The notes under the pieces were generated by a model. The model was not told the DNA's origin and ran no database searches. It saw nothing but the letters and a program-made list of their open reading frames with translations. Positions 342-26,692 of a DNA stretch of 64,000 bases are shown piece by piece. Numbering within the stretch: the stretch's first letter is position 1; the number at the start of each line of letters is the position of its first letter. The DNA is from Parvibaculaceae bacterium. Lineage in GTDB: Bacteria > Pseudomonadota > Alphaproteobacteria > RS24 > CBDDDD01. The stretch is from assembly GCA_965226465.1 (NCBI GenBank), contig OZ245362.1, forward strand, positions 112,232 to 176,231. Direction: 5' to 3'. The position numbers and the translations under genes were made by a program.

Positions 342-403
342 CCCTTCAGCCGAGTAAAGGTTGAGGAAAGTACCGTCATTATAACATGCGCCAAAGGCGC
401 ATG

Positions 404-603
404 CCCCGCCCACACCCCCCTGACCCCCCTTCGCTCAGAACACTTTGTGTTCCTGCGCGCAAAAAGCTAGACCCCAGCAAAGCTGGGGAGCTTTTTTCAC
501 CCTTTTTTAATAGGCATGTAATGCCTATTAAAAAATAGGGGGGGATAAGGAGTGCGCCCTAAGGGGCGCGCATTTTTTATGGAGTGGAGGGAATGCTCCT
601 AGT
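404..603. repeat. mosaic multi-hairpin intergenic repeat, copy A (full)
   Basis: Near-identical to 19707-19878 and partly to 26827-27079 and 5004-5054. Modules: C-rich tract 404-429, hairpin gaacac-ttt-gtgttc, hairpin ccccagc-aaa-gctgggg plus T-run, 33-nt palindrome 503-535 (ttttttaataggcat gta atgcctattaaaaaa), hairpin gcgccc..gggcgc plus T-run, then ggagtggagg tail. Confidence 0.85.
472..497 (+). terminator. intrinsic-terminator-like hairpin inside repeat copy A
   Basis: Stem ccccagc / loop aaa / gctgggg, followed by agctttttt. Lies downstream of ORF 3-341. Confidence 0.45.
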
Positions 604-654
604 CTTCCAGTCAAGCGGGTGTGTGCCTTAAAGGGGGGCTTTTTTATTTGCTGG

Positions 655-2955
655 TTATTTTTTTTGGGGGAGGAAGGCTTTTAGGGTGAAGAGGGCGAAG
701 CAGGCTACGCCGAAGGCGAAGATTAGGTCGCCGGGGACTCTTAGCCAGACTAGGGATTCCATTAGGGGGGAGTGGATTATTTCGGAGGAGCGGGCGACGT
801 GGTAGCCTTTGGTGATGCTGGCATAGGATTGTACTATGCCTTGTGGCAATAGAGAGAGGAAGGTCATCATGGCAAGTCCTATATTGAGGCTCCAAAAGCT
901 TTTGCTGAGCAGGTTGTTATCCCAGTTTTTGTGTTTGGTGAGACCGCGCATGCAATAGAGCATTAGACCTAAGCCGAGCATGCCATAGACGCCGAATAAG
1001 GCGGCGTGTCCGTGATTGGCGGTGAGGTTTAGACCTTGCACATAATAGAGGGAGATGGGGGGGTTTATCAAAAAGCCGAATATGCCGGCTCCGACCAGAT
1101 TCCAGAAGAGGACGGCGGCGAAGAAGTTGAAGCACCAGCGGTAGTTTTCTTCCCATTTTTGGCTGTGTTCTAGGCTGGAGCGGTGATATGCCTCAAAGCC
1201 GATGACGGTGAGGGGGACGACTTCCAGTGCTGAAAAGCTGGCGCCTATCGCCATTATTGCTATGGGGGTGCCGCTGAAATATAAATGGTGGAAGGTGCCT
1301 AATACGCCGCCTGCCAAGAAAATAATGGTGGCGATTAATACCATTACCGATGCCGTCTGCACTCGTAATAAGCCCATATAGACAAATAATACGGATACAA
1401 TGGCGGTGGCAAATACTTCAAACATGCCCTCTACCCAGAGGTGGACGACCCACCAGCGCCAATAATTTACTACGGCTAAATGCGTGTTCTGTCCCCATAA
1501 CAGCCCGACAAGATATAATACGCCTATGGAAACGGTCGCCAAGCCTACCAATAATAGCGGCGTTTTATATTGCACCAAAGCAGAGCGGGCATCATCGGAG
1601 CTTAGCTTTTCGCGCAATAGGGGGACTACGCCCCTAAGCACCAGAAATACCCATAATAGTAAGCCAATGGCGAGATAAATCTGCCAGAAACGTCCTAAAT
1701 CAACATATTCATAGCCTTGATGTCCGAACCAGAAATTGACGGTCATATTGCTGATGAAGCGGTGGACGGCACTCCACTCGCCGATGAAGGAGCCGACGAC
1801 TATCACCAATAGGCTGCCAAAGAGGAAGTTCACGCCTGCGCGCTGGAAGGGGGGGTCTTTTTTTGTAAGGAGGGGGGCTATATAAAGACCGGCGGCAAGC
1901 CAAGCGGTGGCTATCCAATATACCGCCAGCTGTGTGTGCCATGTTCTTGTGACGGCATAGGGGAAGTAATCCGCCAGAGGTAAGCCGTAAAGACCTTGTC
2001 CTTCCACGGCATAATGGGCGGTGATGATGCCCAAAACTATCTGCACGGCAAATAAGGCGGTTACCAGCCAGAAATATTTTGCCGTTGCCCGCATGGAGGG
2101 GGTTATCGTCACCTTATCCATAATGTCGCTGGTCGCAAAGCCAGCCTCGGGCTTCATGCTTTTATGCCAGATATTATATTGCTTGGCGTAATACCAGACT
2201 ATCGCCCCTATGCCTGCCAAGAGTAATATTACGGACAGCACGCTCCATAAAACAAGGCTGGGATGGGCTACATTGCCGAGCATGGGGTCATAGGGCCAAT
2301 TGCTGGTATAGCTATAGTCTTTATGCGGACGGTTTGTTATCGCCGCCCATGATGTCCAGAAGAAAAAGGCGTTTAGGGCATCTGCTTCGCTATTGGTGAG
2401 GTTTGCGTGGAGGGGGAGGGCGTAATCGCGGCGGATTGCTAATGCTTCCTCATCCTCGGCGGTGAATATTCGTTTGTAATAGGCTGCGGTTTTTTCTATG
2501 GCGGTGCGGCGGTTTTCGCTGACTATAATAGTGCCGCTTTGGGGGTTATAGCTATTGGTGCGCATGTCTTTTTGCAATAATGCTAAATGGGCGGCGTGGG
2601 CGGCTTCATCGCTTAAGGAGCGCAATTTGTTTTGCTTGGTGATAATCTCTAAAAGGGCTACGCCTTCTCTATGCAACCAGTCGGCACTCCAATCGGGGGC
2701 GACATAGCTGCCATGACCCCAAATAGATCCCTGCTGCATGCCCCCCATGCTTTGCCAAATATTCTGCCCATGCTCAATATCGGTTTTTTCAAAAATGACC
2801 GTGCCATTGCTGCTCACCACCTGCTCAGGAATAGGGGGGGCGACCTGGTAAATCTCACGCCCGAAATACAGCAAAATGGAAAAAGAAATAACCAGCCCTA
2901 TGATTAAGATGGTCCATAGGCGGGCAATGGAAAAAGTTTGACGATAATCTGACAT
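655..2955 (-). CDS. norB: quinol-dependent nitric-oxide reductase (single-subunit qNOR, NorB/NorZ type)
   Basis: About 766 aa, with an N-terminal extension plus a 12-TM heme-copper-oxidase core and the NorB-type string WWVVHLWVEG. I place the start at ATG 2955, preceded by gggagga; the ORF-track start at 3069 adds 38 unlikely residues. Confidence 0.85.
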   Translation of the reverse strand: MSDYRQTFSIARLWTILIIGLVISFSILLYFGREIYQVAPPIPEQVVSSNGTVIFEKTDIEHGQNIWQSMGGMQQGSIWGHGSYVAPDWSADWLHREGVALLEIITKQNKLRSLSDEAAHAAHLALLQKDMRTNSYNPQSGTIIVSENRRTAIEKTAAYYKRIFTAEDEEALAIRRDYALPLHANLTNSEADALNAFFFWTSWAAITNRPHKDYSYTSNWPYDPMLGNVAHPSLVLWSVLSVILLLAGIGAIVWYYAKQYNIWHKSMKPEAGFATSDIMDKVTITPSMRATAKYFWLVTALFAVQIVLGIITAHYAVEGQGLYGLPLADYFPYAVTRTWHTQLAVYWIATAWLAAGLYIAPLLTKKDPPFQRAGVNFLFGSLLVIVVGSFIGEWSAVHRFISNMTVNFWFGHQGYEYVDLGRFWQIYLAIGLLLWVFLVLRGVVPLLREKLSSDDARSALVQYKTPLLLVGLATVSIGVLYLVGLLWGQNTHLAVVNYWRWWVVHLWVEGMFEVFATAIVSVLFVYMGLLRVQTASVMVLIATIIFLAGGVLGTFHHLYFSGTPIAIMAIGASFSALEVVPLTVIGFEAYHRSSLEHSQKWEENYRWCFNFFAAVLFWNLVGAGIFGFLINPPISLYYVQGLNLTANHGHAALFGVYGMLGLGLMLYCMRGLTKHKNWDNNLLSKSFWSLNIGLAMMTFLSLLPQGIVQSYASITKGYHVARSSEIIHSPLMESLVWLRVPGDLIFAFGVACFALFTLKAFLPQKK

Positions 2956-3171: not shown

Positions 3172-4038
3172 ATGAATTTTTGGAATAAAAATGATGAAGT
3201 TACTTTTTTTGAAAGAGCATTAAAAAAATTTGCTCCTCCTGAAAAACTATTTTATGAACTTCCAGAAGGCTATTTTGCCTATATTCCCAAAAAACAAAGT
3301 GCCGAAGGTAAGGTGGTGCAGGCTAGAAATGCACTAATTGGAAGCTATACCGAGAAATGGTGTAAGGATTTTTTTCAACCTATTGCTGACCAATTGAAAT
3401 TATTTCCGGTAAATGGTGTTGTCTGCCAAGAATTGGGCTTAAACAATACAACAGATGCAGATTTGGCATTTTGTACAACAAAAAGCAAAGAACAATCGGC
3501 AGAAAATATAAAGCTAATCTTTGAAGTTAAAATGGGAATAGTCAATAATTATTCTTATAATGATAAGAGCGATAAATTAAAATTTGAAGGAGATTATAAG
3601 ACCCATAAGGGAAATCCTTCCATTCTCCGATCTGATTCAATGTTGAAAGCAATAGGAAAATCTATAAATATTCGTGTATCAGGAGCTAAATCCGCTAAAA
3701 TCCCAATTGTTATTTTAGGAAACAGCCCAATAGCAGAAAGCTATATAAAGAAGGTTGATTTCCTGAAACAGGCAGGAGTTGTTCAGGGATTTATTTCGCT
3801 TTATCCAAATCCAACCGCTCAATATATTCAAAAAACTCCAAATAAGGGGTTTCAAACATTTAATGATTATTCTGCATTGAAGAGTCATATATCAGAATTG
3901 ATTCAGGCAGATATGAACTTCTTCTCATCAATGTTGCCTAAGCAAAAACTTGGAGAAATGATTACAATTTCAGCCAAAGAAGAAACCGAGCTAGCCAAAG
4001 CAGAGAGATTTCTCCAATTGCTGGATGAGGAAAGCTGA
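3172..4038 (+). CDS. putative type II restriction endonuclease (PD-(D/E)XK-like)
   Basis: AT-rich ORF directly upstream of, and overlapping by 1 nt (TGATG), a DNA methyltransferase. DADLAFC...IKLIFEVKMG gives a D...E-V-K motif. No named family recognised. Confidence 0.5.
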   Translation: MNFWNKNDEVTFFERALKKFAPPEKLFYELPEGYFAYIPKKQSAEGKVVQARNALIGSYTEKWCKDFFQPIADQLKLFPVNGVVCQELGLNNTTDADLAFCTTKSKEQSAENIKLIFEVKMGIVNNYSYNDKSDKLKFEGDYKTHKGNPSILRSDSMLKAIGKSINIRVSGAKSAKIPIVILGNSPIAESYIKKVDFLKQAGVVQGFISLYPNPTAQYIQKTPNKGFQTFNDYSALKSHISELIQADMNFFSSMLPKQKLGEMITISAKEETELAKAERFLQLLDEES

Positions 4039-4946
4039 TGAAAAAAAACGGTACAACAACAAGTGCATTTGGAACAAGCGGGCGAGTTAATCATAATTCT
4101 GAAAAGTTTTATGAATCAAAGCTGTATAAAAATCTATCACAAAGCAAAGAATGCTCCAAAGAGGTTAATGAATTTCCTGCAGAATTTATGAATAAAAATA
4201 TTCTTGGAAGTGCAGAAGATATGTCAATGATTCCAGATAATTCCCTGCATCTCATGATTACCTCCCCGCCATATAATGTCTCAAAAGAATATGATGATGA
4301 TTTGTCATTGGAAGAATATTTGGAAATGCTAACAAAGGTTTTTGCGGAAACATATAGAGTGCTCGTTAATGGCGGTAGGGCATGTGTTAATGTAGCCAAT
4401 TTAGGAAGAAAACCTTACATACCACTTAGTGATCATATTTCTAAAATAATGATTGATTTAGGGTTTAATATGAGAGGAGAAATAATTTGGAATAAGGCAG
4501 CAAGTGCCGCCCCTTCTACTGCTTGGGGTAGCTGGATGTCCGCTTCTAACCCGACATTAAGGGATGTGCATGAATATATTTTAGTCTTTTCTAAAGGGGA
4601 GTATAAAAGAGAAAGAAAAAAAGAGGAAAAAGAAGTCAAAAAGAATACGATTTCAAAAGAGGACTTCATGGAATGGACCAAATCAATCTGGACCTTTAAT
4701 GCTGAGTCTGCTCGCAGAATTGGACATCCAGCCCCATTTCCTATCGTGCTTCCTGCTCGATTGATTGATTTATTTTCTTTTACTGACGATATTATATTGG
4801 ACCCTTTTATGGGCAGTGGAACGACAGGGATTGCCGCTCTAGAATCTAATAGAAATTTTGTCGGCTTTGATACAAGTGAAGAATATATTGATTTAGCTGA
4901 AAAAAGATTATTGCCCTATAGAAGCTTATTAAAACTTGAAATATAG
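4038..4946 (+). CDS. DNA methyltransferase, N4-cytosine/N6-adenine family, beta-class motif order
   Basis: Motif IV is MITSPPYNV (SPPY). It precedes motif I, LDPFMGSGTTGIAA, near the C-terminus. Confidence 0.85.
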   Translation: MKKNGTTTSAFGTSGRVNHNSEKFYESKLYKNLSQSKECSKEVNEFPAEFMNKNILGSAEDMSMIPDNSLHLMITSPPYNVSKEYDDDLSLEEYLEMLTKVFAETYRVLVNGGRACVNVANLGRKPYIPLSDHISKIMIDLGFNMRGEIIWNKAASAAPSTAWGSWMSASNPTLRDVHEYILVFSKGEYKRERKKEEKEVKKNTISKEDFMEWTKSIWTFNAESARRIGHPAPFPIVLPARLIDLFSFTDDIILDPFMGSGTTGIAALESNRNFVGFDTSEEYIDLAEKRLLPYRSLLKLEI

Positions 4947-5056: not shown

Positions 5057-5923
5057 TTAGCTACCGAACATTTTGGGTTTTTGTCCGGTGGTTTGGGTTT
5101 TTAGGGTGAAGAAGTTGCCGGCTTGGGGGTGCTTTGTTTTGTTTAGTCCTATGCGGGCGGTGGTGATGAAAAGTTCGGTGTTGGTTTTGCCGCCGAAGGT
5201 GCAGGAGGTTACTCTGGGGGCGGGGAGGGGGATTTTTTGGAGGGAGTTGCCGTGCATGTCAAAGCGTTCTATGCGGTGTCCGTCCCAGAAGGCTACCCAT
5301 ATATTGCCGTCGCTATCGGTGGTCATGCCGTCGGGGTAGCCGTCTCCCTTGCCGAATTGTTTCCATAGTCTTTTATTGCGTACTTCGCCGTGGTCGTAGT
5401 CAAAGACATAGATTTTTTGGATTGCGGAATCGGTTACATACATGCGGTTATGGATGCAGCAAAATGCGGGACCATTGGTGACTTTATAGCCGCTATCTAT
5501 GAGGGTTAGCTCGCCATTGTGGTTTAGGCGATACAAACTGCCGCTGATGTCGTCTTCTCTGTCGTCCATTGTGCCGAGCCAGAAATTTCCTTCAAAGTCT
5601 AGCTTGCCGTCATTAATGCGGTTATAGGGGAGGTCGGTTTCTAGGGGCATGAGGTCTTTTATGGTGAAACTGCCGCCAGCTTCAAGGTGTAGGTGGGCGA
5701 TGTGCCGCTTTAGCCCCGCAATGAAGCCGCCTTTTTTATGGGGGGCGAAGCAGCATAGCATTTTGCCTAGCGACCAGCTTTCATGGCGACCGCTATCGGG
5801 GTCATAGGCGAAGGCTTTTTTGCCTTTAATATCGGTGAAATAGGTAAGTCCGTTGCGCTCATCCCATATCGGTCCTTCTCCCAATAGGGCGCGGCTTTCT
5901 AAAACTAGCTCTGCTTTGCTCAT
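5057..5923 (-). CDS. SMP-30/gluconolactonase/LRE-family lactonase
   Basis: 288 aa. N-terminal LGEGPIWD string and beta-propeller-type repeats typical of the family. Confidence 0.8.
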   Translation of the reverse strand: MSKAELVLESRALLGEGPIWDERNGLTYFTDIKGKKAFAYDPDSGRHESWSLGKMLCCFAPHKKGGFIAGLKRHIAHLHLEAGGSFTIKDLMPLETDLPYNRINDGKLDFEGNFWLGTMDDREDDISGSLYRLNHNGELTLIDSGYKVTNGPAFCCIHNRMYVTDSAIQKIYVFDYDHGEVRNKRLWKQFGKGDGYPDGMTTDSDGNIWVAFWDGHRIERFDMHGNSLQKIPLPAPRVTSCTFGGKTNTELFITTARIGLNKTKHPQAGNFFTLKTQTTGQKPKMFGS

Positions 5924-6006
5924 TATGGCACTATATCCATAAGTCTTGTATTTTGCAAACTCAGAGGCTAGTCTAATGCTCTAGTTTTTATGGGGGAAGT
6001 GCTCTT

Positions 6007-7500
6007 ATGAGAAAAATTTCTATTGCCTTGATTACCATTCTTGTCATGGGAACGGCGTATTCGCTGTTTGGCGATATTATCATTAGGAGCGAAAAGCCTA
6101 ATATATTATGGATCTATGTTGAGGATATGAATGATTGGATGGGGGCGTATGGTGATGATACCGTGCCGACACCCAATATTGATAGGCTTGCGGCTAAAGG
6201 GGTGCGGTTTGATAATGCGATTATGCCGTCTCCCGTTTGCTCGGTGACGAGGTCGGCGATTATTACTGGTGTTATGGCGAGCAATTTGGGGCTGCATAAT
6301 CATCGGTCTTCTCGTGCGCCCTCTGCACAGATTTATTTGCCGCCTAAGCATAAGACTATTCCTGAATTATTTAGGCAGGCGGGCTATGTTACGTTTAATC
6401 AGGGTAAGGATGATTATAATTTTGCTTATCAAAGGCAGAAGCTTTATTCCTTTGACCCGGGGGCGGATAAGATGAAAAAGCAATATGAGAAGTCTAAGCA
6501 TAAGGTGAAGGCGGGGAAGCGGTTTAAGTTGAAGGATTTGCCGAGAAATAAGCCGTTTTTTGGGCAGATACAGCTTAATGGGGGGAAGGATAAAGCCAAG
6601 CCCATTGTGAAGGTTTCGGCGGATAGTGTTGCGGGGAAGCTGCCGCCTTATTATCCTAATGCGCCTAGTTTTAGGAAGGCGTGGGCGCGCCATTATGAGC
6701 AGATTGCGATTACGGATTGGCGGGTTGGGAAAATTATTGAGGAGCTGAAGGCGGCGGGGCTTTATGAGAATACGGTCATCTTTTTCTTTACAGACCATGG
6801 CATGGTGTTGCCCCGCCATAAGCAGTTTCTTTATGAGGGGGGTATTCGGGTGCCGCTTGTGGTGAGCTGGGCGGGTAATGAAGGGGCACTTGCTGAGCGG
6901 GGGAAGGTGCGGGCGGATATTGTCAATGGGATTGATATTGGCACTTCATCGCTTGCCATTGCGGGGATTAATATTCCGAAATATATGGAGGGGGATGATG
7001 TTTTTGACCCTCATTATGAAGATAAGGCTTTTACCATCGCAACGCGTGACCGTCTGGATTATACTTTTGACCGTATACGGACGGTTCGGGGGGTGCGGTA
7101 TAAATATATTCGCAATTTCTTCCCTGAGCGGGCTTATTTGCAGCCGCAATATCGGGACTTGCACCCGAAGGCTTTTCCTTTTATGCCGGAGCTTAGGAAA
7201 TTACAAAAACAGGGGAGACTTAGCGCGGTGCAGGAGGCATTTCTGTCGCCTACCCGCCCTATTGAGGAGTTATATGATTTGCAAAACGACCCCCATGAAA
7301 CCAAGAATCTTGCTGGTGAGCGGCGGCACCGCAAAGTTCTTAAGGAATATAGGGAAGTTTTGGAGGATTGGATAAGGGCTTCTGATGATAAGGGGGAATA
7401 TCCTGAAAGTGATGTGGCGATGGCGGCGATTATTGGGCGATGGGGGGATATTTGCCAAAGCCCTGAGTGTAGGAATTATAGGTTGCGGCATGGGTTATAG
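6007..7500 (+). CDS. exported sulfatase (type I, formylglycine-dependent family)
   Basis: Signal peptide, then NILWIYVEDMNDW...PSPVCSVTRSAIITG (active-site C-x-x-x-R) and FFTDHG. Confidence 0.8.
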   Translation: MRKISIALITILVMGTAYSLFGDIIIRSEKPNILWIYVEDMNDWMGAYGDDTVPTPNIDRLAAKGVRFDNAIMPSPVCSVTRSAIITGVMASNLGLHNHRSSRAPSAQIYLPPKHKTIPELFRQAGYVTFNQGKDDYNFAYQRQKLYSFDPGADKMKKQYEKSKHKVKAGKRFKLKDLPRNKPFFGQIQLNGGKDKAKPIVKVSADSVAGKLPPYYPNAPSFRKAWARHYEQIAITDWRVGKIIEELKAAGLYENTVIFFFTDHGMVLPRHKQFLYEGGIRVPLVVSWAGNEGALAERGKVRADIVNGIDIGTSSLAIAGINIPKYMEGDDVFDPHYEDKAFTIATRDRLDYTFDRIRTVRGVRYKYIRNFFPERAYLQPQYRDLHPKAFPFMPELRKLQKQGRLSAVQEAFLSPTRPIEELYDLQNDPHETKNLAGERRHRKVLKEYREVLEDWIRASDDKGEYPESDVAMAAIIGRWGDICQSPECRNYRLRHGL

Positions 7501-11556: not shown

Positions 11557-14712
<3,156 letters not shown>

Positions 14713-14713
14713 C

Positions 14714-16120
14714 ATGAAAACCATTATTCATATTTTGCTTGTCGGGGTCATTGCTCTTTTTGCGGTGTCTGAGGTGCAAGCCAAGCGCAAAAAGCCTAAT
14801 CTTGTCCTTATACTGACGGATGACCAAGGCTATGCCGATGTTGGGTTTAATGGTAGCACCGAGATTAAGACGCCTAATATTGACCGTATTGCTTATGAGG
14901 GGGTGCGCTTTGATAGCGGATATGTGTCTTTTCCTGTCTGTGGTCCAAGTCGGGCGGGGCTTTTGACGGGGAGATATCAGGATAGGTTTGGCTTTATTCT
15001 GAACCCAAGCCCTGACCCTAAGGATAAAAAGGGGGGGCTTCCTAAGAGTGAGAAAAATATCGCTGAGGTGCTGAAGCCTGCGGGATATCGGAGCGCAATT
15101 TTGGGGAAATGGCATATGGGCTCGCACCCTATTTTTCATCCCAATCGGCGGGGCTTTGATTATTTCTTTGGGTTTCTGACCGGTGGGCATAAATATTTTC
15201 CTCATGCGCTGAAATATAATTCTGTGGAGGAGACGCTGCAAAAATGGGATTGGTATTCAACCAGAATCCTCAGAAATAATAAGCGGATTGATATTGACGA
15301 ATATCTTACCGATGAGATTTCCAATGAGGCGGTCGCCTTCATTAAGAGGGAAAAGAAAAAGCCCTTTTTTCTTTATGTCGCCTATAACGCTCCGCATGGA
15401 CCTTTGCAGGCAACGGAGAAATATCTCAAGCGATATAGCCATATTAAAAATAAGAAGCGGCGCACCTATGCCGCTATGGTGAGCGCCGTTGATGATGGGG
15501 TCGGGCGCATACTGGATGTGCTGGAAGAGGAGGGGCTGGATGAGGATACGATTGTGGTTTTCCTGTCTGATAATGGCGGTCCTGTTAAGAAAAATGCGTC
15601 CAATAATGGGGTATTGCGGGAGGGGAAAAGTAGCCCCTTTGAGGGTGGTATCAGAGTGCCTTTTGCGATGCGCTGGAAGGGGGTTATTCCAGCCGGCATG
15701 GATTATAAAGAGCCTGTTATTTCGCTGGATATTCTTGCTACCATTGTCGGGGAGGCTAAGGTCAGTATGCGGAGGAATAAAAAGCTGGATGGGGTCAATC
15801 TTGTTCCCTATTTGACGGGCAAGAAGAAAGGCTCGCCCCATGATATTTTATTTTGGAGGGGGTGGCGCAAGCAATTTAGCGTCGCCAGAATGGGGGAGGA
15901 TAAGATTGTCAATGTGAAGAAAAAACCCATGCTCTATAATTTGGAGGAGGATATTTCCGAAAAAAATGACCTCTATTGGCGGGATAAAAAAACCTATAAA
16001 GCCCTTAATGAAAAGCTGGATGAGTGGAAAAAGGACTTCTCGCCGCCTGCTTTTCAGGGGCTTTTGGGCTGGAAGGCTGAGAATAAAAAGAGGGGCAATA
16101 GGAATAAAGATAATGAGTAA
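14714..16120 (+). CDS. exported sulfatase (arylsulfatase family)
   Basis: Signal peptide, LILTDDQGYADVG, active site CGPSRAGLLTGRY, GKWHMG, FLSDNGG. ATG 14714 lies 2 nt after the upstream stop. The track start at 14525 is an overlap artefact. Confidence 0.85.
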   Translation: MKTIIHILLVGVIALFAVSEVQAKRKKPNLVLILTDDQGYADVGFNGSTEIKTPNIDRIAYEGVRFDSGYVSFPVCGPSRAGLLTGRYQDRFGFILNPSPDPKDKKGGLPKSEKNIAEVLKPAGYRSAILGKWHMGSHPIFHPNRRGFDYFFGFLTGGHKYFPHALKYNSVEETLQKWDWYSTRILRNNKRIDIDEYLTDEISNEAVAFIKREKKKPFFLYVAYNAPHGPLQATEKYLKRYSHIKNKKRRTYAAMVSAVDDGVGRILDVLEEEGLDEDTIVVFLSDNGGPVKKNASNNGVLREGKSSPFEGGIRVPFAMRWKGVIPAGMDYKEPVISLDILATIVGEAKVSMRRNKKLDGVNLVPYLTGKKKGSPHDILFWRGWRKQFSVARMGEDKIVNVKKKPMLYNLEEDISEKNDLYWRDKKTYKALNEKLDEWKKDFSPPAFQGLLGWKAENKKRGNRNKDNE

Positions 16121-16187
16121 AAGAGGTGTTCGCTTGACGGCAAAGGATTATCGGGTTAGCTTTATGAATAGAACTTCTGGGGGGAAA

Positions 16188-17594
16188 ATGAAATTTTTTA
16201 TCCATATTTTGCTTGTCGGGGCAATTGCCCTTTTTGCGGTGTCTGATGCTTCTGCCAAGCGCAAAAAGCCTAATCTTATTCTTATACTGACCGATGACCA
16301 AGGCTATGCCGATGTCGGGTTTAATGGCAGCACGGAGATTAAAACGCCCAATATTGACCGTATCGCTTATGAGGGGGCACGTTTTGATAGCGGATATGTG
16401 TCTTTTCCTGTCTGTGGTCCGAGCCGTGCGGGGCTTTTGACGGGGAGATATCAGGATAGGTTTGGCTTTATTCTGAACCCTTCTATTAATCCTGCTGACA
16501 AAGCGGGGCTTCCCAAAAGTGAGAAAAATATTGCTGAGGTGCTGAAGCCTGCGGGATATCGCACGGCTATTCTTGGGAAATGGCATATGGGGACGCATCC
16601 TGTTTTTCATCCTAATCGTCGGGGCTTTGATTATTTTTGGGGTTTTCTTTCGGGCGGGCATAGATATTTTCCCCATGAGCTGACATTGAACTCTCTTGAT
16701 GAGGTGGAAAGAGCTTGGCAATGGTATAGCACGCGAATCTTGCGAAATAATAAGCGGATTGATATTGACGAATATCTGACTGATGAGATTTCCAATGAGG
16801 CGGTCGCTTTCATTAAGAGGGAAAAGAAAAAGCCCTTCTTTCTTTATGTCGCCTATAATGCGCCCCATGCGCCTTTGCAGGCTACGGAGAAATATCTCAA
16901 GCGATTTAGTCATGTTGAGAATAAGAGGCGCAGAACCTATCTCGCTATGGTGAGTGCGGTTGATGATGGGGTCGGGCGCATTTTGGACACGTTGGAAGAG
17001 GAGGGGCTGGATGAGGATACGATTGTGGTTTTCCTTTCCGATAATGGCGGGGCGTTGAAGAAAAATGCTTCCGATAATGGCATATTGCGGGACGGCAAGG
17101 GTAGTCCCTTTGAGGGCGGTATCAGGGTGCCTTTTGCGATGCGCTGGAAGGGGGTTATTCCCGCTGGCTTGGATTATAAGCCTGCCGTTATTTCGCTTGA
17201 TATTCTTGCTACCATTGTCGGTGAGGCTAAGGTCAGTATGCGGAGGAATAAGAAGCTGGATGGGGTCAATCTCATTCCCTATCTGACGGGGAAGAAAAGG
17301 GGCGAGCCTCATGATATTTTATTCTGGCGGGGCTGGAATAGGAAATATACCGTTGCTAGGGCGGGGGGGGATAAGATTATTACCGCCAAGAAAACGCCTA
17401 TGCTTTATAATTTGGAGGAGGATATTTCCGAAAAAAATAATCTCTATCGGAAGAATAAAAAGCGTTATGAAAGCCTCAATGCAAAAGTGGAGGAGTGGAA
17501 AGAGGATTTCTCGCCGCCTATTTTTACCGGTCTTGGGGAATGGACGGGCAATAATAATAATAAAAAAAATAACAAGAAAAAGAAAAGGAGATGA
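16188..17594 (+). CDS. exported sulfatase, tandem paralogue of 14714-16120
   Basis: Most positions are identical by eye to the preceding sulfatase, with the same motifs. C-terminal tail NNNNKKNNKKKKRR. Start at ATG 16188 with ggggggaaa upstream. Confidence 0.85.
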   Translation: MKFFIHILLVGAIALFAVSDASAKRKKPNLILILTDDQGYADVGFNGSTEIKTPNIDRIAYEGARFDSGYVSFPVCGPSRAGLLTGRYQDRFGFILNPSINPADKAGLPKSEKNIAEVLKPAGYRTAILGKWHMGTHPVFHPNRRGFDYFWGFLSGGHRYFPHELTLNSLDEVERAWQWYSTRILRNNKRIDIDEYLTDEISNEAVAFIKREKKKPFFLYVAYNAPHAPLQATEKYLKRFSHVENKRRRTYLAMVSAVDDGVGRILDTLEEEGLDEDTIVVFLSDNGGALKKNASDNGILRDGKGSPFEGGIRVPFAMRWKGVIPAGLDYKPAVISLDILATIVGEAKVSMRRNKKLDGVNLIPYLTGKKRGEPHDILFWRGWNRKYTVARAGGDKIITAKKTPMLYNLEEDISEKNNLYRKNKKRYESLNAKVEEWKEDFSPPIFTGLGEWTGNNNNKKNNKKKKRR

Positions 17595-19144
17595 GTATGA
17601 TGCCGTTTGTTTTCAGAACTCTCGCTATTGCTCTCCTCTTGCCGTTGGTTTTTGCTTGCAAGGAGGAGGGCAAACCCATGCATGGCATGGGTAAGAAGCC
17701 CAATGTGGTTATTTTTTATATTGATGATTTGGGTTATGGTGACCTCGGCTCTTATGGTGCAAAGGGGGTTAAAACGCCCGAAATTGACCGCATTGCTAAG
17801 AAGGGTGTGCGCTTTACGGACGCTCATAGCTCGGCGGCTACCTGCACGCCAAGCCGATATTCCTTATTGACCGGCGAGCATGGCTTTCGTAGCAAAGCGG
17901 CTATTCTGCCGGGTGATGCGCCCGCTCTTATCCGTCCGGGCAAGCCGACATTGGCAACGCTTTTCAAAAAGGCGGGCTATCAAACTGCCGTCGTCGGCAA
18001 ATGGCATTTGGGGCTGGGCAATGGCAATGTCAATTGGAATAAGAAAGTCGCACCCGGTCCCTTGGAGATAGGGTTTGATTATAGTTTTCTGCTTCCTGCT
18101 ACGGGGGATAGGGTGCCGACGGTTTATCTGGATGGTCACCATGTGGTGAGCCTTGATAGGAAAGATCCGATTAAGGTTAGTTATCGGGGTAAGGTGGGCA
18201 AGCGTCCTACCGGTTTGGAGCGTCCTGACCTGCTGCGGGTCAAGGCGGATAAGCAACATAGTCAGACGATTATTAATGGTGTCAGTCGCATTGGCACGAT
18301 GGGTGGCGGTGAGAGTGCGCTGTGGGTGGATGAGGATTTCCCCGATATTTTTACCGAAAAAGCCGTGCAGTTTATGCGTGAAAATAAGGATAAGCCTTTT
18401 TTCCTTTTTCATTCCTATCATGATATTCATGTGCCGCGCTTGCCCCATCCGCGCTTTGAGGGGAAGTCCCGCATGGGTCCAAGGGGGGATGCGATTGTGC
18501 AGATGGATTGGATGACCGGTCAGATTATTCGTGAGCTGGAAAAGCTTGGGATTGCGGATAATACGCTTATTATTTTTACGAGCGATAATGGTCCTGTGCT
18601 GAATGATGGCTATGAGGATGAGGCGGTGGAGAAGCTTGGGAAGCATAAGCCTTGGGGTCCGTTTCGGGGGGGGAAATATAGTGCTTATGAGGCGGGAACC
18701 AGGGTGCCGACGATTGTGTATTGGCCCGGAACCATAAAGCCCAAAACCAGCAAGGTGCTGTTTTCGCAGATTGATATTTATGCATCGCTCGCCAAGCTTA
18801 TCGGCATTGAGCTTGAGGATGGCGAGGCGATGGATAGCATGGAGGTGCTGGATGTTATGCTCGGCAAAAAAGGGCGCGAGCGCAGGGAGCTTTTGGAGGA
18901 ATCGGTTGCGACCAATGCGCTCAGAGACGGCAAGTGGAAGTTTATTCCGATAACGCCTTCCAAGCGTAATCATGAGTTTCTGAAAAGGAAAAATATTGAG
19001 GGCGGCTTTAAGCCCTATCCGCAATTATATAATCTGGATAAGGATATTGGCGAGCGCAATAATCTCGCCGAGCAACACCCTGAGCGTGTTAAAGCTATGG
19101 CGGCGCGCATTAAGGATATTGTTAAAAATGGCTACTCCCGCTAG
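17591..19144 (+). CDS. sulfatase, probable lipoprotein
   Basis: Lipobox LVFAC. IFYIDDLGYGDLG, active site CTPSRYSLLTG, GKWHLG, FTSDNGP. ATGA overlap with the upstream stop. Confidence 0.85.
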   Translation: MSMMPFVFRTLAIALLLPLVFACKEEGKPMHGMGKKPNVVIFYIDDLGYGDLGSYGAKGVKTPEIDRIAKKGVRFTDAHSSAATCTPSRYSLLTGEHGFRSKAAILPGDAPALIRPGKPTLATLFKKAGYQTAVVGKWHLGLGNGNVNWNKKVAPGPLEIGFDYSFLLPATGDRVPTVYLDGHHVVSLDRKDPIKVSYRGKVGKRPTGLERPDLLRVKADKQHSQTIINGVSRIGTMGGGESALWVDEDFPDIFTEKAVQFMRENKDKPFFLFHSYHDIHVPRLPHPRFEGKSRMGPRGDAIVQMDWMTGQIIRELEKLGIADNTLIIFTSDNGPVLNDGYEDEAVEKLGKHKPWGPFRGGKYSAYEAGTRVPTIVYWPGTIKPKTSKVLFSQIDIYASLAKLIGIELEDGEAMDSMEVLDVMLGKKGRERRELLEESVATNALRDGKWKFIPITPSKRNHEFLKRKNIEGGFKPYPQLYNLDKDIGERNNLAEQHPERVKAMAARIKDIVKNGYSR

Positions 19145-20310: not shown

Positions 20311-20649
20311 AGCCCAACACAATCCTTCCATCTTCGCTTATCGTGCAAAATGTGAAAGGGTGTGGGTTGCGTGAAATTTGGCAAAATATGCTGAAAACCG
20401 CGTAACATGCTGTTTGATATTGTGAAGAAGAGTGATATGCCTGGACTTCTTGTCCGCATGTAAGCCTATCAACTTATGTGCATATATTTATATATACCTA
20501 TATTTATATATAAAAGACTTGTAATGGGTGCCTGTTCCAAATAGGTGCCGAGCAAACCCACGCTTTTTGGGTATATCCAATTAAGGTCATCCGCTTATGT
20601 GAGAATAAGCGGATAATAATCGTAATCATTGCATCATTTCTATCCAAGA

Positions 20650-20670
20650 AATGGGCGGTGATAATGAGAA
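20650..20670 (+). other. 23S leader half of the precursor processing stem
   Basis: aatgggcggtgataatgagaa is complementary at 19 of 21 positions to the trailer at 24096-24116. Confidence 0.6.
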
Positions 20671-21096
20671 TAATCAAGCGTTTAAGAGCATTTGGTGAAT
20701 GCCTTGGCGTTGAGAGGCGATGAAGGACGTGGCACGCTGCGATAAGCTACGGGGAGTTGTGAGCAAACTCTGATCCGTAGATTTCCGAATGGGGAAACCC
20801 AGCCCTTCGGGGCTATCTTCTGCTGAATTAATAGGCAGAAGAGGCAAACCCGGGAAACTGAAACATCTAAGTACCCGGAGGAAAGGACATCAACCGAGAC
20901 TCCGTTAGTAGTGGCGAGCGAACGCGGACCAGGCCAATGCCTGTTATTTTGTAACCAGAAGGAGCTGGGAAGCTCCGCCAGAGTCGGTAATAGCCCGGTA
21001 TGGGTATGCAAAATAATAGGATCCGAGTAAGGCGGGACACGTGAAATCCTGTCTGAATATGGGGGGACCACCCTCCAAGCCTAAGTACTCCTCAAC

Positions 21097-21142
<46 letters not shown>

Positions 21143-21700
21143 AATGAGGGGAGTGAAATAGTCCCTGAAACCGAATGCTTACAATCAGTTGGAGCCTCTT
21201 TTGAGGTGACAGCGTACCTTTTGTATAATGGGTCAGCGACTTAGTCCGGCGTGCGAGCTTAAACCGTTAGGTGTAGGCGTAGCGAAAGCGAGTCTGAACA
21301 GGGCAACCTAGTTCGTCGGATTAGACCCGAAGCCGAGTGATCTAGCCATGGCCAGGTTGAAGGTGCAGTAACATGCACTGGAGGACCGAACCCACCTATG
21401 TTGAAAAATGGGGGGATGAGCTGTGGCTAGGGGTGAAAGGCCAATCAAACTCGGATATAGCTGGTTCTCCGCGAAAACTATTTAGGTAGTGCGTCGCGTG
21501 AATACTCTCGGGGGTAGAGCACTGGATGGGCTAGGGGGCTTCACCGCTTACCAAACCTAACCAAACTCCGAATACCGAGAAGTAATGCGTGGCAGACACA
21601 CTATGGGTGCTAAGGTCCATAGTGGAAAGGGAAACAGCCCGGACCGTCGTCTAAGGTCCCTAAGTTATGGCTAAGTGGGAAAGGATGTAGGGGTTCCAAA

Positions 21701-21749
<49 letters not shown>

Positions 21750-21825
21750 CAGCTCACTGGTCTAATTAAGAACCCCCGCGCCGAAGATATATCGGGGCTA
21801 AAGCCATACACCGAAGACACGGGTG

Positions 21826-22519
21826 CTTGAGATCGTTTACTATAGTTAGTAAAGTAAAAAATAAAATGTGGGAAAACCTTATTCCTTCCCTTGCATTATT
21901 TCTGCCTTTTCCATAAGGTCAAAGCAGAATAAGCAAGAGAAGGGGAGCAATACGCTCATGGGTTCAGAAAAAGAAAAAAATACTGAGAGCGCAATCAAAA
22001 AGAGATTGCAGTCTATTGCCAAAACACTTCAGGAAAATAATTTTGAAGTGAAATTTGGGCAAGGAAGTGAAGGCAATCGCCTTTATCTCAAAAGTGTATT
22101 TCGTAAAAATATCTCTTCTGACTCCTTTAGCTGGCGTTTTGATAATTTTGATGTCTGGATAACAGAAACAGATGATGGGAAGGATATGCTCATTTGCAGA
22201 TTTAAGCATGATGTGGATAGTCCAGCCTGTTTTAAAGAATATGAAACGCTTAAAGAAAAAATAAGCGAGCGGATAATGAGGGATATAAAAGCAGAAACAG
22301 GAATTAAAGTTTGCTTTGAGAAGAGAACAGGATATCAAGCAGTGTCTTTTGATGATATTGCGAAGATGGTTTTTCTGCTGATAGTTGGAGGAATGCTAAT
22401 CATATCTTTTGATGGATTTTACAGTAATCTTTTAGGAGGTTTTCTTGTTTTCATAAGCTTCATGTTTTTTCTTACCTACGCCATAAGTTATATCAAAAAC
22501 TATAGTAATCGGTCTCAAG
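21826..22519 (+). other. 23S rRNA intervening sequence (IVS), helix 45 site
   Basis: Conserved 23S sequence stops at ...ccgaagacacgggtg and resumes at cgcggtagcggagcgttccgtaagcc. The 694-nt AT-rich insert is bounded by the 22-nt inverted repeat 21826-21847 / 22498-22519 (one G.U pair and one mismatch). Confidence 0.8.
21891..21919 (+). promoter_or_regulatory. candidate internal sigma70 promoter inside the IVS
   Basis: TTGCAT, 17-nt spacer, TAAGGT. About 40 nt upstream of the IVS ORF start. Confidence 0.25.
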
Positions 22520-22527
22520 CGCGGTAG
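21958..22527 (+). CDS. hypothetical membrane-anchored protein encoded within the 23S IVS (189 aa)
   Basis: ATG 21958 is preceded by aggggag (21941-21947). The product has a soluble N-terminal region of about 140 aa, then two hydrophobic helices (MVFLLIVGGMLIISF, LLGGFLVFISFMFFLTYAISYI). The alternative GTG at 21868 seems less likely. Translation is unproven. Confidence 0.4.
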   Translation: MGSEKEKNTESAIKKRLQSIAKTLQENNFEVKFGQGSEGNRLYLKSVFRKNISSDSFSWRFDNFDVWITETDDGKDMLICRFKHDVDSPACFKEYETLKEKISERIMRDIKAETGIKVCFEKRTGYQAVSFDDIAKMVFLLIVGGMLIISFDGFYSNLLGGFLVFISFMFFLTYAISYIKNYSNRSQAR

Positions 22528-22686
22528 CGGAGCGTTCCGTAAGCCAGTGAAGGCGATTTGTAAGAATTGCTGGAGGTATCGGAAGTGAGAATGCTGACAT
22601 GAGTAACGATAAGGAGGGTGAAAAACCCTCCCGCCGAAAGTCCAAGGGTTCCTGCCCAATGTTAATCAGGGCAGGGTTAGTCGGCA

Positions 22687-22722
<36 letters not shown>

Positions 22723-23080
22723 GAGGTTAATATTCCTCAACCTGTGGGTAGTGACAGATCGCAGAAGTAGTTTTCCCTTATCGGATTGAGAAGGCTGCCA
22801 CGTGGTCTCAGGAAATAGCTCCCACATTTAAGACCGTACCCTAAACCGACACAGGTGGACAGGTAGAGAATACCAAGGCGCTTGAGAGAACGATGCTGAA
22901 GGAACTCGGCAAAATACCTCCGTAACTTCGGGAGAAGGAGGCCCTATAGGGAGGCAACTCTCTATGGGGGGCACAGACCAGGGGGTAGCGACTGTTTATT
23001 AAAAACACAGGGCTCTGCGAAGTCGCAAGACGACGTATAGGGTCTGACGCCTGCCCGGTGCCGGAAGGTTAAGACGCGGA

Positions 23081-23187
<107 letters not shown>

Positions 23188-23446
23188 CGACTTCCCCACT
23201 GTCTCCAGCATCGACTCAGTGAAATTGAATTCCCCGTGAAGATGCGGGGTTCCTGCGGTTAGACGGAAAGACCCCGTGCACCTTTACTACAGCTTTGCAG
23301 TGGCGTTAGTGACGACATGTGTAGGATAGGTGGTAGGCTTTGAAGCCAGGGCGCAAGCCCAGGTGGAGCCGCAATGTGAAATACCACCCTTATCTTTATT
23401 GACGTCTAACCGCGGCCCGTTATCCGGGTCCGGAACCCTGCATGGT

Positions 23447-23493
<47 letters not shown>

Positions 23494-23615
23494 GCAATGG
23501 TAGGCTCAGGCTGGTCGGAAATCAGCCGTCGAGTGCAATGGCATAAGCCTGCCTGACTGCGAGAGTGACAGCTCGAGCAGAGACGAAAGTCGGTCATAGT
23601 GATCCGGTGGTCCCA

Positions 23616-23670
<55 letters not shown>

Positions 23671-23945
23671 GACCCCCAAGAGTCCATATCGACGGGGTTG
23701 TTTGGCACCTCGATGTCGGCTCATCTCATCCTGGGGCTGAAGCAGGTCCCAAGGGTTTGGCTGTTCGCCAATTAAAGAGGTACGTGAGCTGGGTTTAGAA
23801 CGTCGTGAGACAGTTTGGTCCCTATCTGCCGTGGGTGTTGGAAAGTTGAGAGGAGTTGTCCCTAGTACGAGAGGACCGGGATGAACATATCTCTGGTGGA
23901 GCTGTTGTCGCGCCAGCGGCATTGCAGCATAGCTATATATGGAAA

Positions 23946-23979
<34 letters not shown>

Positions 23980-24095
23980 CCCTCGAAACAAACTATCCCT
24001 GAAGAGCCGTGGTAGACTACCACGTTGATAGGCCGGGTGTGGAAGCGCAGCAATGCGTGGAGCTTACCGGTACTAATTGCTCGTTCGGCTTGGTT

Positions 24096-24116
24096 TTCTC
24101 ATTTTCTCCGCCCATT
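24096..24116 (+). other. 23S trailer half of the precursor processing stem
   Basis: ttctcattttctccgcccatt pairs with the leader at 20650-20670. Confidence 0.6.
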
Positions 24117-24174: not shown

Positions 24175-24292
24175 GGTCTGGTGATTATAGCGAGGAGCTC
24201 ACACCCGATCCCTTTCCGAACTCGGAAGTTAATCTCCTCCGCGCCGATGGTACTGCATCTTAAGGTGTGGCAGAGTAGGTCGTTGCCAGGCC
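24175..24292 (+). rRNA. rrf: 5S ribosomal RNA
   Basis: ccgaactcggaagttaa...gcgccgatggtact...agagtaggtc strings, with terminal helix ggtctggtg / tgccaggcc. Confidence 0.9.
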
Positions 24293-24399: not shown

Positions 24400-24478
<79 letters not shown>

Positions 24479-24556: not shown

Positions 24557-26692
24557 ATGGTAGGCATATATGAAAAATTTTGTAAGACCAAAGACTATAA
24601 TCAAGCCACAAAGGATTGTATTGAGAATACAGTTCGGGAAATTAAAAAAACTGATACGACTGCACAAAAGCCAGGAATGTTGCTCGGTAAAATCCAGAGT
24701 GGGAAAACTCGTACATTTATAGGCGTGACGGCTTTGGCTTTTGATAAGGGCTATGACTTTGCAGTTGTGCTCACCAAAGCTACGAATGCACTAACAAAAC
24801 AAACCTATGAGCGTTTGTGCCAAGAGTTTGAAGAATTCGTTGAGGATGATGAAATCGGAATCTATGATATCATGAATACGCCTGACGAATTAACGCCTTA
24901 TATACGAGGGAAAAAGTTAATCTTCATCGTTAAAAAAGAGACACATAATCTTGATCGACTTGTTAAGTTGTTCGAGAAATATGAAGACTTTAGAACAAAA
25001 CAAGTGCTGATTATTGATGATGAAGCTGACTATGCCAGCATTGGTTTCAAGAGAGATGGAAAACAGATTGACGATGTATCCATCAATACAATCGCTAATA
25101 AGATTAATAGACTGCGCGATTATGGCGCAACGACAAGCTTCTTGCAAGTTACCGCTACGCCTTACAGTCTGTATCTTCAGCCAGACGATATACATTTGAA
25201 CGGCGAAGAATACCACCCTGTCCGCCCGGCGTTCACAGAGCTGGTGCCTATTTATAAAGGATATATCGGCGGTGAGTTTTACTTTGAGGAAAGCGAAAAC
25301 CCTGATTCACCCGCTTATTACCTGCATGTGGACGTGCCAGAGAAAGAATTAGAAGTTCTAGGAAAGCGCGACATGCGGTATCTCAGCAACATACTTGATA
25401 CACCAAATCTAGAAGTGTTTCGCTTCGCGATTTTAAATTTCCTTGTAGGTGGAAGCATTCGGTGGCTACAAGAACAACCCAGAAAGTATAAATGTAGTTG
25501 CATTATTCATATTGAAGTAGCCCAGAAAAAACACACTTGGCAATATAAGCTTGTTGAAACTCTACTTGAAGAGTTGAAGGCTGGCATTGAGAAAGAGCCT
25601 GATGCTCTGGAGAGATTGGTTCGTGATAGCTATAATAATCTTAAGCTATCCATTAAAGATGACCAACTTCCTACGTTTAAGGATGTTTTTACTTTTGTAA
25701 AGAAAGCCATTGGGGATGGCTATGTAGGCATTAGTAAAATTAATTCTGAAGGACAGGTGCAAACGCTACTTGACCGTAAAGGGCAGTTGCGGCTGGATAA
25801 TCCATTTAATATCTTCATAGGGGGGCAGATTCTGGATAGGGGCATTACAATTGAGAATCTCATTTGTTTTTTTTATGGAAGAAACCCTAAAAAGTTTCAG
25901 CAGGACACCGTTCTTCAACATTCTAGAATGTATGGTGCACGCTCAAAGCAGGATATTTCCGTAACACGTTTCTACACCTCTTCCCGAATTTATGATGCCA
26001 TGAAAAAAATGCATCAATTTGATACCGCACTACGCGAAGCCTTTGAGAAGGGGCAGCATAAAGATGGTGTGGTTTTTCTGGAGAAAGATACTTCTGGTAG
26101 CGTCAAAATATGCGCCCCTAACAAAATCCTAATCTCCTCAACCGAAACAATTCGACCATATCGTCGCCTGCTTCCTCGTGGTATGCAGACAGTTTCAGCT
26201 ACGAAGATGACATCTATCGCTTCGCAAATTGAACAGCTTCTAGAAAAGTATAAATTTTATGACGACAGTGCAATTTTGATTGATTGTGATGATGCAGTAA
26301 AGATGCTGGACTTAATCTATGAAAGTTATGAGTTCTCACATCGATTTAAAAATTTGTACTGCAAATGGGATATAGATTCGTATAAAGCCATTATTCACAG
26401 GCTTTGTGTTAGTCATTGTAACTCAGATAAAGAAAGAAAAATATATTGCTTCATTCGGCGCAACAGGAATATCAGTCGGTTCAAGGAAGGCTATGCATTC
26501 ACTGATGCGCCAGATGATGGTCGAACAGATATTCCGTTGGCGAAGAAACATGCTCAAGACCTGCCTGTTCTTCAGTTATTTCATCAGAATGGGAAAAAAA
26601 AGAATGGTTGGCGGGATGTGCCATTTTGGTGGCCTGTTCTGATTTGTCCTAAAAAAACCAAAACATTAGTTTTTACAGCAGAGACTCTATGA
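24557..26692 (+). CDS. SF2-type ATPase with Z1-like C-terminal domain (restriction/defence-associated family)
   Basis: Walker A GKIQSGKT, Walker B LIIDDEADYAS, VTATP, DRGITIENL and QHSRMYGAR motifs, and a C-terminal GWRDVPFWWPVL string as in Z1-domain proteins. AT-rich. RBS ggggag lies 8 nt upstream. Confidence 0.55.
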   Translation: MVGIYEKFCKTKDYNQATKDCIENTVREIKKTDTTAQKPGMLLGKIQSGKTRTFIGVTALAFDKGYDFAVVLTKATNALTKQTYERLCQEFEEFVEDDEIGIYDIMNTPDELTPYIRGKKLIFIVKKETHNLDRLVKLFEKYEDFRTKQVLIIDDEADYASIGFKRDGKQIDDVSINTIANKINRLRDYGATTSFLQVTATPYSLYLQPDDIHLNGEEYHPVRPAFTELVPIYKGYIGGEFYFEESENPDSPAYYLHVDVPEKELEVLGKRDMRYLSNILDTPNLEVFRFAILNFLVGGSIRWLQEQPRKYKCSCIIHIEVAQKKHTWQYKLVETLLEELKAGIEKEPDALERLVRDSYNNLKLSIKDDQLPTFKDVFTFVKKAIGDGYVGISKINSEGQVQTLLDRKGQLRLDNPFNIFIGGQILDRGITIENLICFFYGRNPKKFQQDTVLQHSRMYGARSKQDISVTRFYTSSRIYDAMKKMHQFDTALREAFEKGQHKDGVVFLEKDTSGSVKICAPNKILISSTETIRPYRRLLPRGMQTVSATKMTSIASQIEQLLEKYKFYDDSAILIDCDDAVKMLDLIYESYEFSHRFKNLYCKWDIDSYKAIIHRLCVSHCNSDKERKIYCFIRRNRNISRFKEGYAFTDAPDDGRTDIPLAKKHAQDLPVLQLFHQNGKKKNGWRDVPFWWPVLICPKKTKTLVFTAETL

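Follow-up and report, generated by a model that had tools for sequence, protein, structure and literature searches.

Intervening sequences (IVSs), which occupy helices 9, 25, and 45, form part of the pre-23S transcript until RNase III excises them without religation; they are then degraded, and no effect on ribosome function has been detected (PMC4990558; PMC8708148). Their typical length is 100 to 200 nt (PMC8708148). In the helix-45 IVS of Coxiella, RACE maps RNase III cleavage to the middle of a 28-bp stem, and this cut takes a putative Shine–Dalgarno site off an ORF for S23p, a four-helix protein, from which no protein was obtained without an engineered ribosome-binding site (PMC4990558). 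The S23p ORF carries deletions among strains, the IVS RNA is short-lived, and the authors concluded that the protein is not made and that the ORF is decaying (PMC4990558). Other protein-coding inserts in 23S rRNA genes are the IS elements with transposase ORFs of Nostoc and Deinococcus (PMC2672173), and the homing endonucleases and S23p of CPR bacteria (PMC11270868). Among the titles and abstracts found for IVS, 23S, and tmRNA, none described an IVS ORF that lacks a stop codon.

The locus analysed here lies in a 64-kb stretch of DNA (the window, by which we mean the whole stretch). Its 23S rRNA gene contains an insert in helix 45 that encloses a long sense-strand ORF, and this ORF ends only in conserved 23S sequence outside the insert (Table 1). 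The gene belongs to a 23S–5S–tRNA-Met unit; the order 23S–5S–tRNA-fMet is typical of Alphaproteobacteria. No 16S rRNA gene was found anywhere in the 64-kb window, and both 16S and tRNA-Ile/Ala are absent within 20 kb upstream of the unit; the rRNA genes of this organism thus appear unlinked. The Parvibaculaceae metagenome-assembled genome (MAG) that has the most similar 23S rRNA gene recovered (L001) has no 16S gene within 4.6 kb upstream of its own 23S. The sequences flanking the window 23S gene pair with each other and, folded as a hairpin, yield −38.3 kcal/mol, which is consistent with a classical processing stem and with maturation of the RNase III type. ARAGORN found no tmRNA within the 64-kb window. 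Several sulfatase-like ORFs cluster at 14525–19144, shortly before the rRNA unit and next to a LacZ-type β-galactosidase (11557–14712), an arrangement that suggests a polysaccharide-degrading lifestyle.

Table 1. Features of the interrupted 23S rRNA gene and of the helix-45 loci used for comparison. Positions are those of the window, except in the last four lines, where they are those of the locus named.
Feature	Position	Strand	Basis or remark
23S processing stem, 5′ half	20648–20680	+	pairs with 24086–24116
23S rRNA gene, host of the insert	20672–24097	+	Rfam RF02541, 2704 bits, full model length
IVS stem, 5′ arm	21823–21847	+	lower 8 nt (21823–21830) are native helix 45
IVS proper, ~680 nt	21833–22512	+	no counterpart in related 23S genes
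Structured leader, two hairpins (21870–21890, 21890–21937)	21870–21937	+	between 5′ arm and Shine–Dalgarno-like motif
Shine–Dalgarno-like motif AAGGGGAG	21940–21947	+	10 nt before ATG; read from sequence
IVS ORF, 189 codons plus TAG	21958–22527	+	ATG start; alternative start GTG 21868
Two predicted membrane helices	22357–22494	+	about aa 134–152 and 158–179; Kyte–Doolittle windows above 1.6
IVS stem, 3′ arm	22498–22522	+	ORF codons 181–189; 22515–22522 are native helix 45
Conserved 23S GGUAG; UAG (22525–22527) is the ORF stop	22523–22527	+	Rfam upper-case consensus; E. coli 23S alignment
23S processing stem, 3′ half	24086–24116	+	pairs with 20648–20680
5S rRNA	24177–24291		downstream of 23S
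tRNA-Met (CAT)	24401–24477		downstream of 5S
PF05635 IVS, L077	approx. 3895–4172		
PF05635 IVS, L107	approx. 1541–1819		
PF05635 IVS, L108	approx. 350–640		
PF05635 IVS, L109	approx. 2358–2845		reverse-complement orientation

The limits of the insert were set by comparison with the L001 23S gene. A blastn alignment between the two genes breaks exactly at 21832/22513, so that the insert proper measures about 680 nt. In the Rfam LSU model, the same sequence remains unaligned as a block within the terminal loop of helix 45 (the hairpin spanning model positions 1205 to 1218), and this placement (E. coli about 1170–1180) agrees with the alignment to E. coli 23S. A repeat finder reported a single inverted repeat in the region, pairing 21825–21847 with 22498–22520 (23 nt, 91% complementary). 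Minimum-free-energy and centroid folds of 21800–22560 both retain this stem and lengthen it by one G·U and one G-C pair to 21823/22522, giving 24 pairs with one U·U mismatch, the lowest 8 bp of which are native helix 45. The stem alone, closed by a tetraloop as a minimal hairpin, yields −35.1 kcal/mol. Between the arms, the GC fraction is 0.35, compared with 0.53 in the rest of the 23S gene and 0.49 in the window. Judged by its site and predicted fold, the insert is a helix-45 IVS whose stem extends the native helix; by analogy with described IVSs, its excision by RNase III would be expected. Both arms contain the 8-nt palindrome ACTATAGT (21839–21846 and 22499–22506), and each arm could therefore also fold back on itself or dimerize with an identical arm.

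A protein-coding insert with inverted termini could in principle be the remnant of a non-autonomous transposon or IS (MITE) whose terminal inverted repeats happen to form a stem. In IS elements, ORFs commonly extend into the right-hand repeat. There is also precedent for IS elements with transposase ORFs as inserts of 23S genes, in Nostoc and Deinococcus (PMC2672173). However, Pfam and NCBIfam detect no transposase domain in the ORF, and no LAGLIDADG, GIY-YIG, or reverse transcriptase domain either; the arm sequence has no second copy in the window; and no direct repeat or target duplication is visible at the insert junctions. Like classical IVSs, moreover, the insert is located exactly within the loop of helix 45 and lengthens the native helix. 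We therefore consider a transposon remnant highly improbable. Intron RNA models gave no match in the window, where Rfam at its gathering threshold returned only rRNA and tRNA.

Other helix-45 loci were collected by their 3′ flanks. When GTDB genomes were scanned at the DNA level for the 3′ junction, one genome was returned, L001, an alphaproteobacterium whose 23S gene is 87 to 91% identical to that of the window. This identity and the order 23S–5S–tRNA-fMet make it likely that the window, too, comes from an alphaproteobacterium. L001 has its own helix-45 IVS of about 340 nt (5746–6085), unrelated to the window IVS, and the two stems have only their lowest 8 to 9 bp in common. The L001 insert encodes a very basic ORF of 55 to 57 aa that has no Pfam match and terminates deep within the loop. 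Scanning metagenomes for the 24-nt 3′ flank gave 120 loci, one of which starts at the match itself and could not be scored. The helix-45 span is 22 to 40 nt, without an insert, in 114 of the remaining 119, and four loci carry IVSs of about 220 to 430 nt. All four of these IVSs contain PF05635 (23S_rRNA_IVP, “S23p”) ORFs that score 34 to 53 bits and are cut to half a domain or frameshifted, and all four ORFs stop before the 3′ arm, with an open run of only 6 to 20 codons upstream of the conserved TAG. The stem arms of the four consist of short CTGACA/TCTGTC-type repeats and recall the GACAGAT heptamer repeats at the 5′ end of the Coxiella IVS.

From these comparisons, the window IVS is judged to be sporadic, with cargo that varies among helix-45 loci; at this site, the cargo apparently turns over and the stem base is retained. 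Its patchy occurrence, together with its atypical composition, points to a horizontal origin of the IVS. The loci also bear on the idea, raised in the earlier note, that an ORF reading through the arm serves a purpose. In all five of the other helix-45 IVSs recovered (L001 and the four metagenomic ones), the ORF ends inside the loop, before the stem, which weakens the idea; it nevertheless survives, because none of these IVSs is homologous to the one in the window.

The sense frame is open across the entire IVS loop. From 21865 to the TAG, it runs for 220 codons (21868–22527 on the plus strand in the ORF list), and ATG 21958 is the most plausible start, giving a protein of 189 aa. The G-rich motif upstream of this ATG (AAGGGGAG) is also found upstream of host genes at 24557 and 29392, and its distance from the ATG is suitable for use; a small hairpin at 21945–21957 overlaps it. 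Stop codons are expected at 8.1% of codons at the composition of the insert, which puts the probability of 189 open codons, calculated analytically, at about 1e-7. Likewise, when the insert was shuffled 5000 times with dinucleotides preserved, no shuffle reached the open run of 216 to 220 codons (mean 70 codons). The open frame as a whole is thus not due to chance. Its codons resemble those of coding sequence, with purines at 67% of first positions (A 0.38, G 0.29) and a T-rich third position. GC at third positions is 0.31, compared with 0.52 in host ORFs, which makes the gene look foreign. A frame of this length at 35% GC must have been either kept by selection or acquired very recently, and selection would imply that the protein is made. 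An antisense ORF of 124 aa (21964–22338, minus strand) was set aside as much shorter than the sense frame of 189 to 220 codons.

Translation of this ORF need not begin on the rRNA transcript. An IVS promoter in or past the 5′ arm would yield an mRNA that lacks the 5′ arm, and therefore has no stem and escapes RNase III, with the TAG of 23S serving as an ordinary stop codon. A promoter-like sequence, TTGAGA-17-TAAAGT, lies at 21827–21855, and a 110-nt leader, structured and equipped with the Shine–Dalgarno-like motif, separates the 5′ arm from the ATG. The promoter match is weak (9/12), however, and sites of this kind are not enriched in the sequence (7 found, compared with 5.0 ± 2.4 in shuffles). 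Moreover, no terminator lies downstream, and the transcript would run into 1.6 kb of 23S. Independent transcription of the gene is on these grounds unlikely.

The product of the ORF has no detectable relatives. In the public protein collection, the 189-aa protein occurs once (P0001, one member), and searches of a 5.8-billion protein index and, with phmmer, of 1.84 billion representatives returned the ORF only to itself. No domain was matched in Pfam or NCBIfam, and the absence of matches in PHROGs and PADLOC leaves no defence or toxin family to which it could be assigned. PF05635, the family usual at this site, gave no match to the window ORF even at E ≤ 1, whereas the same profile recovered the IVS ORFs of L077, L107, L108, and L109 at the bit scores given above (cut-off 33.8). 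Searches of plasmids and phages with tblastn found no match to the ORF, peptide-pattern scans of GTDB genomes and JGI metagenomes found no relative of it, and tblastn and blastn against 121 23S loci (L001–L121) found nothing like the window IVS at the DNA or protein level. The only hit in viral contigs, an 808-aa tape-measure-like protein (L123), shares the seed peptide EYETLKEK and a hydrophobic stretch with the ORF (30.8 bits pairwise) and was rejected as a chance similarity. By sequence comparison, then, the ORF is an orphan outside known families. Part of this status may be an annotation effect, since ORFs inside rRNA genes are probably under-called and protein databases probably under-sample them; the nucleotide-level scans partly offset such under-calling. 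Because no homologue was found, conservation of the stop arrangement cannot be shown.

Single-sequence AF2 modeling predicts, in this order, one helix, five strands, another helix, and a further strand, with two hydrophobic helices after them. The N-terminal domain is modeled as an ordered α/β fold (pLDDT 73.5, pTM 0.61), and the hydrophobic helices (aa 131–151 and 158–187 in the model) overlap those of the hydropathy plot; the predicted architecture is an α/β domain joined to a two-helix membrane hairpin. Foldseek searches of the PDB, for which both the full model and the N-terminal domain served as queries, and of BFVD gave no hit at E ≤ 0.001, and no TM-score exceeded 0.36. By hydropathy, only one codon separates the end of the second hydrophobic helix from the 3′ arm, whose nine codons specify the tail N-Y-S-N-R-S-Q-A-R. 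A cytoplasmic tail would be expected to be basic. Because the hairpin ends one codon earlier and the tail is basic (K, R, R), the arm-encoded residues could be a functional part of the protein.

These properties also bear on whether the ORF is simply dead, or was never translated: the relic of a captured gene fragment that lost its own end at insertion and is transcribed only as rRNA. The ORF is an orphan and has no stop codon of its own, and degenerate ORFs are usual both in the other recovered IVSs and in Coxiella (PMC4990558). Against this stand the absence of any frameshift or internal stop in 189 to 220 codons, at a stop probability of 8% per codon, and an architecture that looks complete, with an ordered predicted fold. 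A silent relic is in our judgment improbable, if the least far-fetched of the alternatives.

The end of the ORF lies outside the IVS. Its last codons are AAA AAC TAT AGT AAT CGG TCT CAA GCG CGG, followed by TAG at 22525–22527, and the frame contains no stop codon from 21865 to 22524. The Rfam consensus directly 3′ of helix 45 is GGUAG in upper case, denoting high conservation, and the window has GGTAG at the corresponding positions. The stop segment is the counterpart of E. coli GGGUAGGGG, the near-universal GGUAG that follows helix 45; direct alignment to the E. coli 23S gene sets window GCGCGGTAGCGGAGCGTTC opposite E. coli GTTGGGTAGGGGAGCGTTC, and the wider alignment sets ...TCAAGCGCGGTAGCGGAGCGTTC opposite ...GCGTTGTTGGGTAGGGGAGCGTTC. 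The Rfam consensus and the E. coli alignment thus identify the TAG of the ORF as conserved 23S sequence. The earlier note, which was made from the letters of the sequence, had claimed that the ORF reads through the 3′ arm and takes its stop from 23S, and had equated the stop segment with its E. coli counterpart; both claims are borne out. Some of its boundaries need adjustment. It quoted the ten last codons and the position of the TAG correctly, but the ten begin at 22495 rather than 22498, and it is nine of them (22498–22524) that fall in the arm, codon 181 beginning at its first base. The inverted repeat is real and starts at 22498 as described, but it reaches 22520–22522 rather than 22519.

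The stop codon begins 3 nt past the last paired base of the stem. Because it lies outside the stem, any cut within 21823–21847/22498–22522 would leave an IVS RNA that has no in-frame stop. The earlier proposal that a cut in the stem strips the ORF of its stop is therefore valid as geometry, with cleavage itself supposed by analogy; for the excised RNA to be a non-stop message, cutting of the stem and translation of the RNA would both be necessary and would together suffice. The read-through is unremarkable in itself. The probability that 10 codons remain open is 0.43 at the composition of the insert, and two of the three frames cross the arm without a stop: one frame closes at TAG 22503, within the palindrome ACTATAGT, one at the conserved TAG, and one at 22586. 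Passage through the arm is thus no more than expected by chance.

Our preferred explanation, to which we assign a probability of roughly 0.6, is a classical helix-45 IVS with novel orphan cargo: an AT-rich ORF, acquired horizontally, that codes or until recently coded for a real protein and whose frame is incidentally open through the 3′ arm to the conserved GGUAG. The ORF lacks a stop of its own; its frame passes the nine arm codons and closes at the GGUAG past helix 45, where an in-frame stop is first encountered. A cut in the stem, presumably by RNase III, would part the ORF from this stop. On the excised IVS RNA, which is expected to be short-lived, ribosomes would then only stall, to be rescued, and their product would be degraded; uncut precursor would be the sole source of releasable protein. 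Overall, little or no stable protein would be expected from the rRNA transcript. We infer that the stop arrangement is probably not under selection, and that the read-through is probably a by-product of the seat of the insert in the helix rather than a selected device.

The contrary proposal is that the borrowed stop was selected, and that the gene is gated by RNase III: releasable protein would arise only from unprocessed pre-23S and would report failure or inhibition of RNase III or of rRNA maturation. In a refinement of this proposal, the ribosome on the last ~10 codons melts the stem, so that translation competes with excision. The geometry is as such gating would need, with the stop lying 3 nt beyond the stem; statistically, the ORF is real, and a host-like Shine–Dalgarno motif precedes it; and the predicted membrane-hairpin architecture is compatible with a small effector. 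The earlier note had gone in this direction, speculating that full-length protein is made only when excision fails and that its production is coupled to RNase III activity or rRNA maturation. We found this coupling unsupported. There is no homologue in which conservation could be seen and no match to a defence or toxin family, an open frame through the arm is expected by chance (P = 0.43), the ORFs of the other IVSs terminate within the loop, and in Coxiella the analogous severing accompanies decay of the ORF, not regulation. Selection of the borrowed stop for such gating is accordingly very unlikely. Its most explicit form is a shade less probable still: a gene translated on nascent pre-23S, whose membrane protein is finished only if the helix-45 stem escapes RNase III (for example, through inhibition of RNase III by phage or stress, or through stalled ribosome assembly), with the ribosome at the last ten codons blocking excision and the excised RNA cleared by ribosome rescue. 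Three features argue against pure accident, namely the intact frame of 189 to 220 codons in AT-rich DNA, the host-type Shine–Dalgarno motif, and the membrane hairpin with its basic tail, and for this reason the maturation-gated reading stays alive at the level of a few percent.

Even if the arrangement is incidental, as the explanation that we prefer has it, the locus is a clean natural example that the cargo of IVSs goes beyond the S23p family. It would also illustrate that rRNA maturation can remove an essential translation signal from an embedded ORF, here the stop codon and in Coxiella the Shine–Dalgarno sequence; loss of translation signals in this way helps explain why IVS ORFs decay. 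Were the arrangement selected, this would be the first protein whose completion depends on failure of rRNA processing, linking RNase III activity, ribosome biogenesis, and ribosome rescue directly, and the output of a small membrane effector would read the state of rRNA processing. A practical warning follows from the single occurrence of the ORF in the protein collection: ORFs embedded in rRNA genes are the kind of sequence that annotation probably misses.

Among known systems, the closest are the helix-45 IVSs of Salmonella, Leptospira, Coxiella, Campylobacter, and alphaproteobacteria, which resemble the window IVS in site, in a long stem that extends the helix, in GC below that of the host, and in sporadic distribution; the IVS ORFs of Leptospira and Coxiella also lie on the rRNA sense strand, as the window ORF does. 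At about 680 nt, the window IVS is far above the typical 100 to 200 nt and longer than the 428-nt IVS of Coxiella, and its ORF differs from the usual helix-45 IVS ORFs in not belonging to PF05635, in overlapping the whole 3′ arm, and in having no stop inside the IVS. The two inserts are similar in composition (both about 35–36% GC) and in that processing of the stem would part the ORF from a translation signal, the Shine–Dalgarno at the 5′ side in Coxiella and the stop at the 3′ side in the window. In Coxiella, however, the ORF lies in the loop, has its own stop, and belongs to a widespread family, and cleavage, RNA instability, and absence of the protein have been tested experimentally, whereas the window case is read from sequence. 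PF05635 proteins are likewise encoded inside 23S IVSs, including the four metagenomic helix-45 IVSs that have the 3′ flank of the window, but the family is a 106-position profile of four-helix proteins with no membrane segments described, whereas the window ORF is predicted to be α/β with two membrane helices.

The IS elements and homing-endonuclease introns of rRNA genes share with the window a protein-coding 23S insert, flanked by inverted repeats in the IS case; the window insert differs in having no transposase, no LAGLIDADG or GIY-YIG domain, no intron RNA match, and no other copies in the window. A last parallel is with non-stop mRNAs, which, when produced by endonucleolytic cutting, are rescued by tmRNA–SmpB. 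The excised IVS RNA would resemble them in carrying a start codon and a Shine–Dalgarno-like motif but no in-frame stop, and would differ from them in that its truncation would be built into rRNA maturation, as a constitutive and programmed step, instead of arising through mRNA decay.
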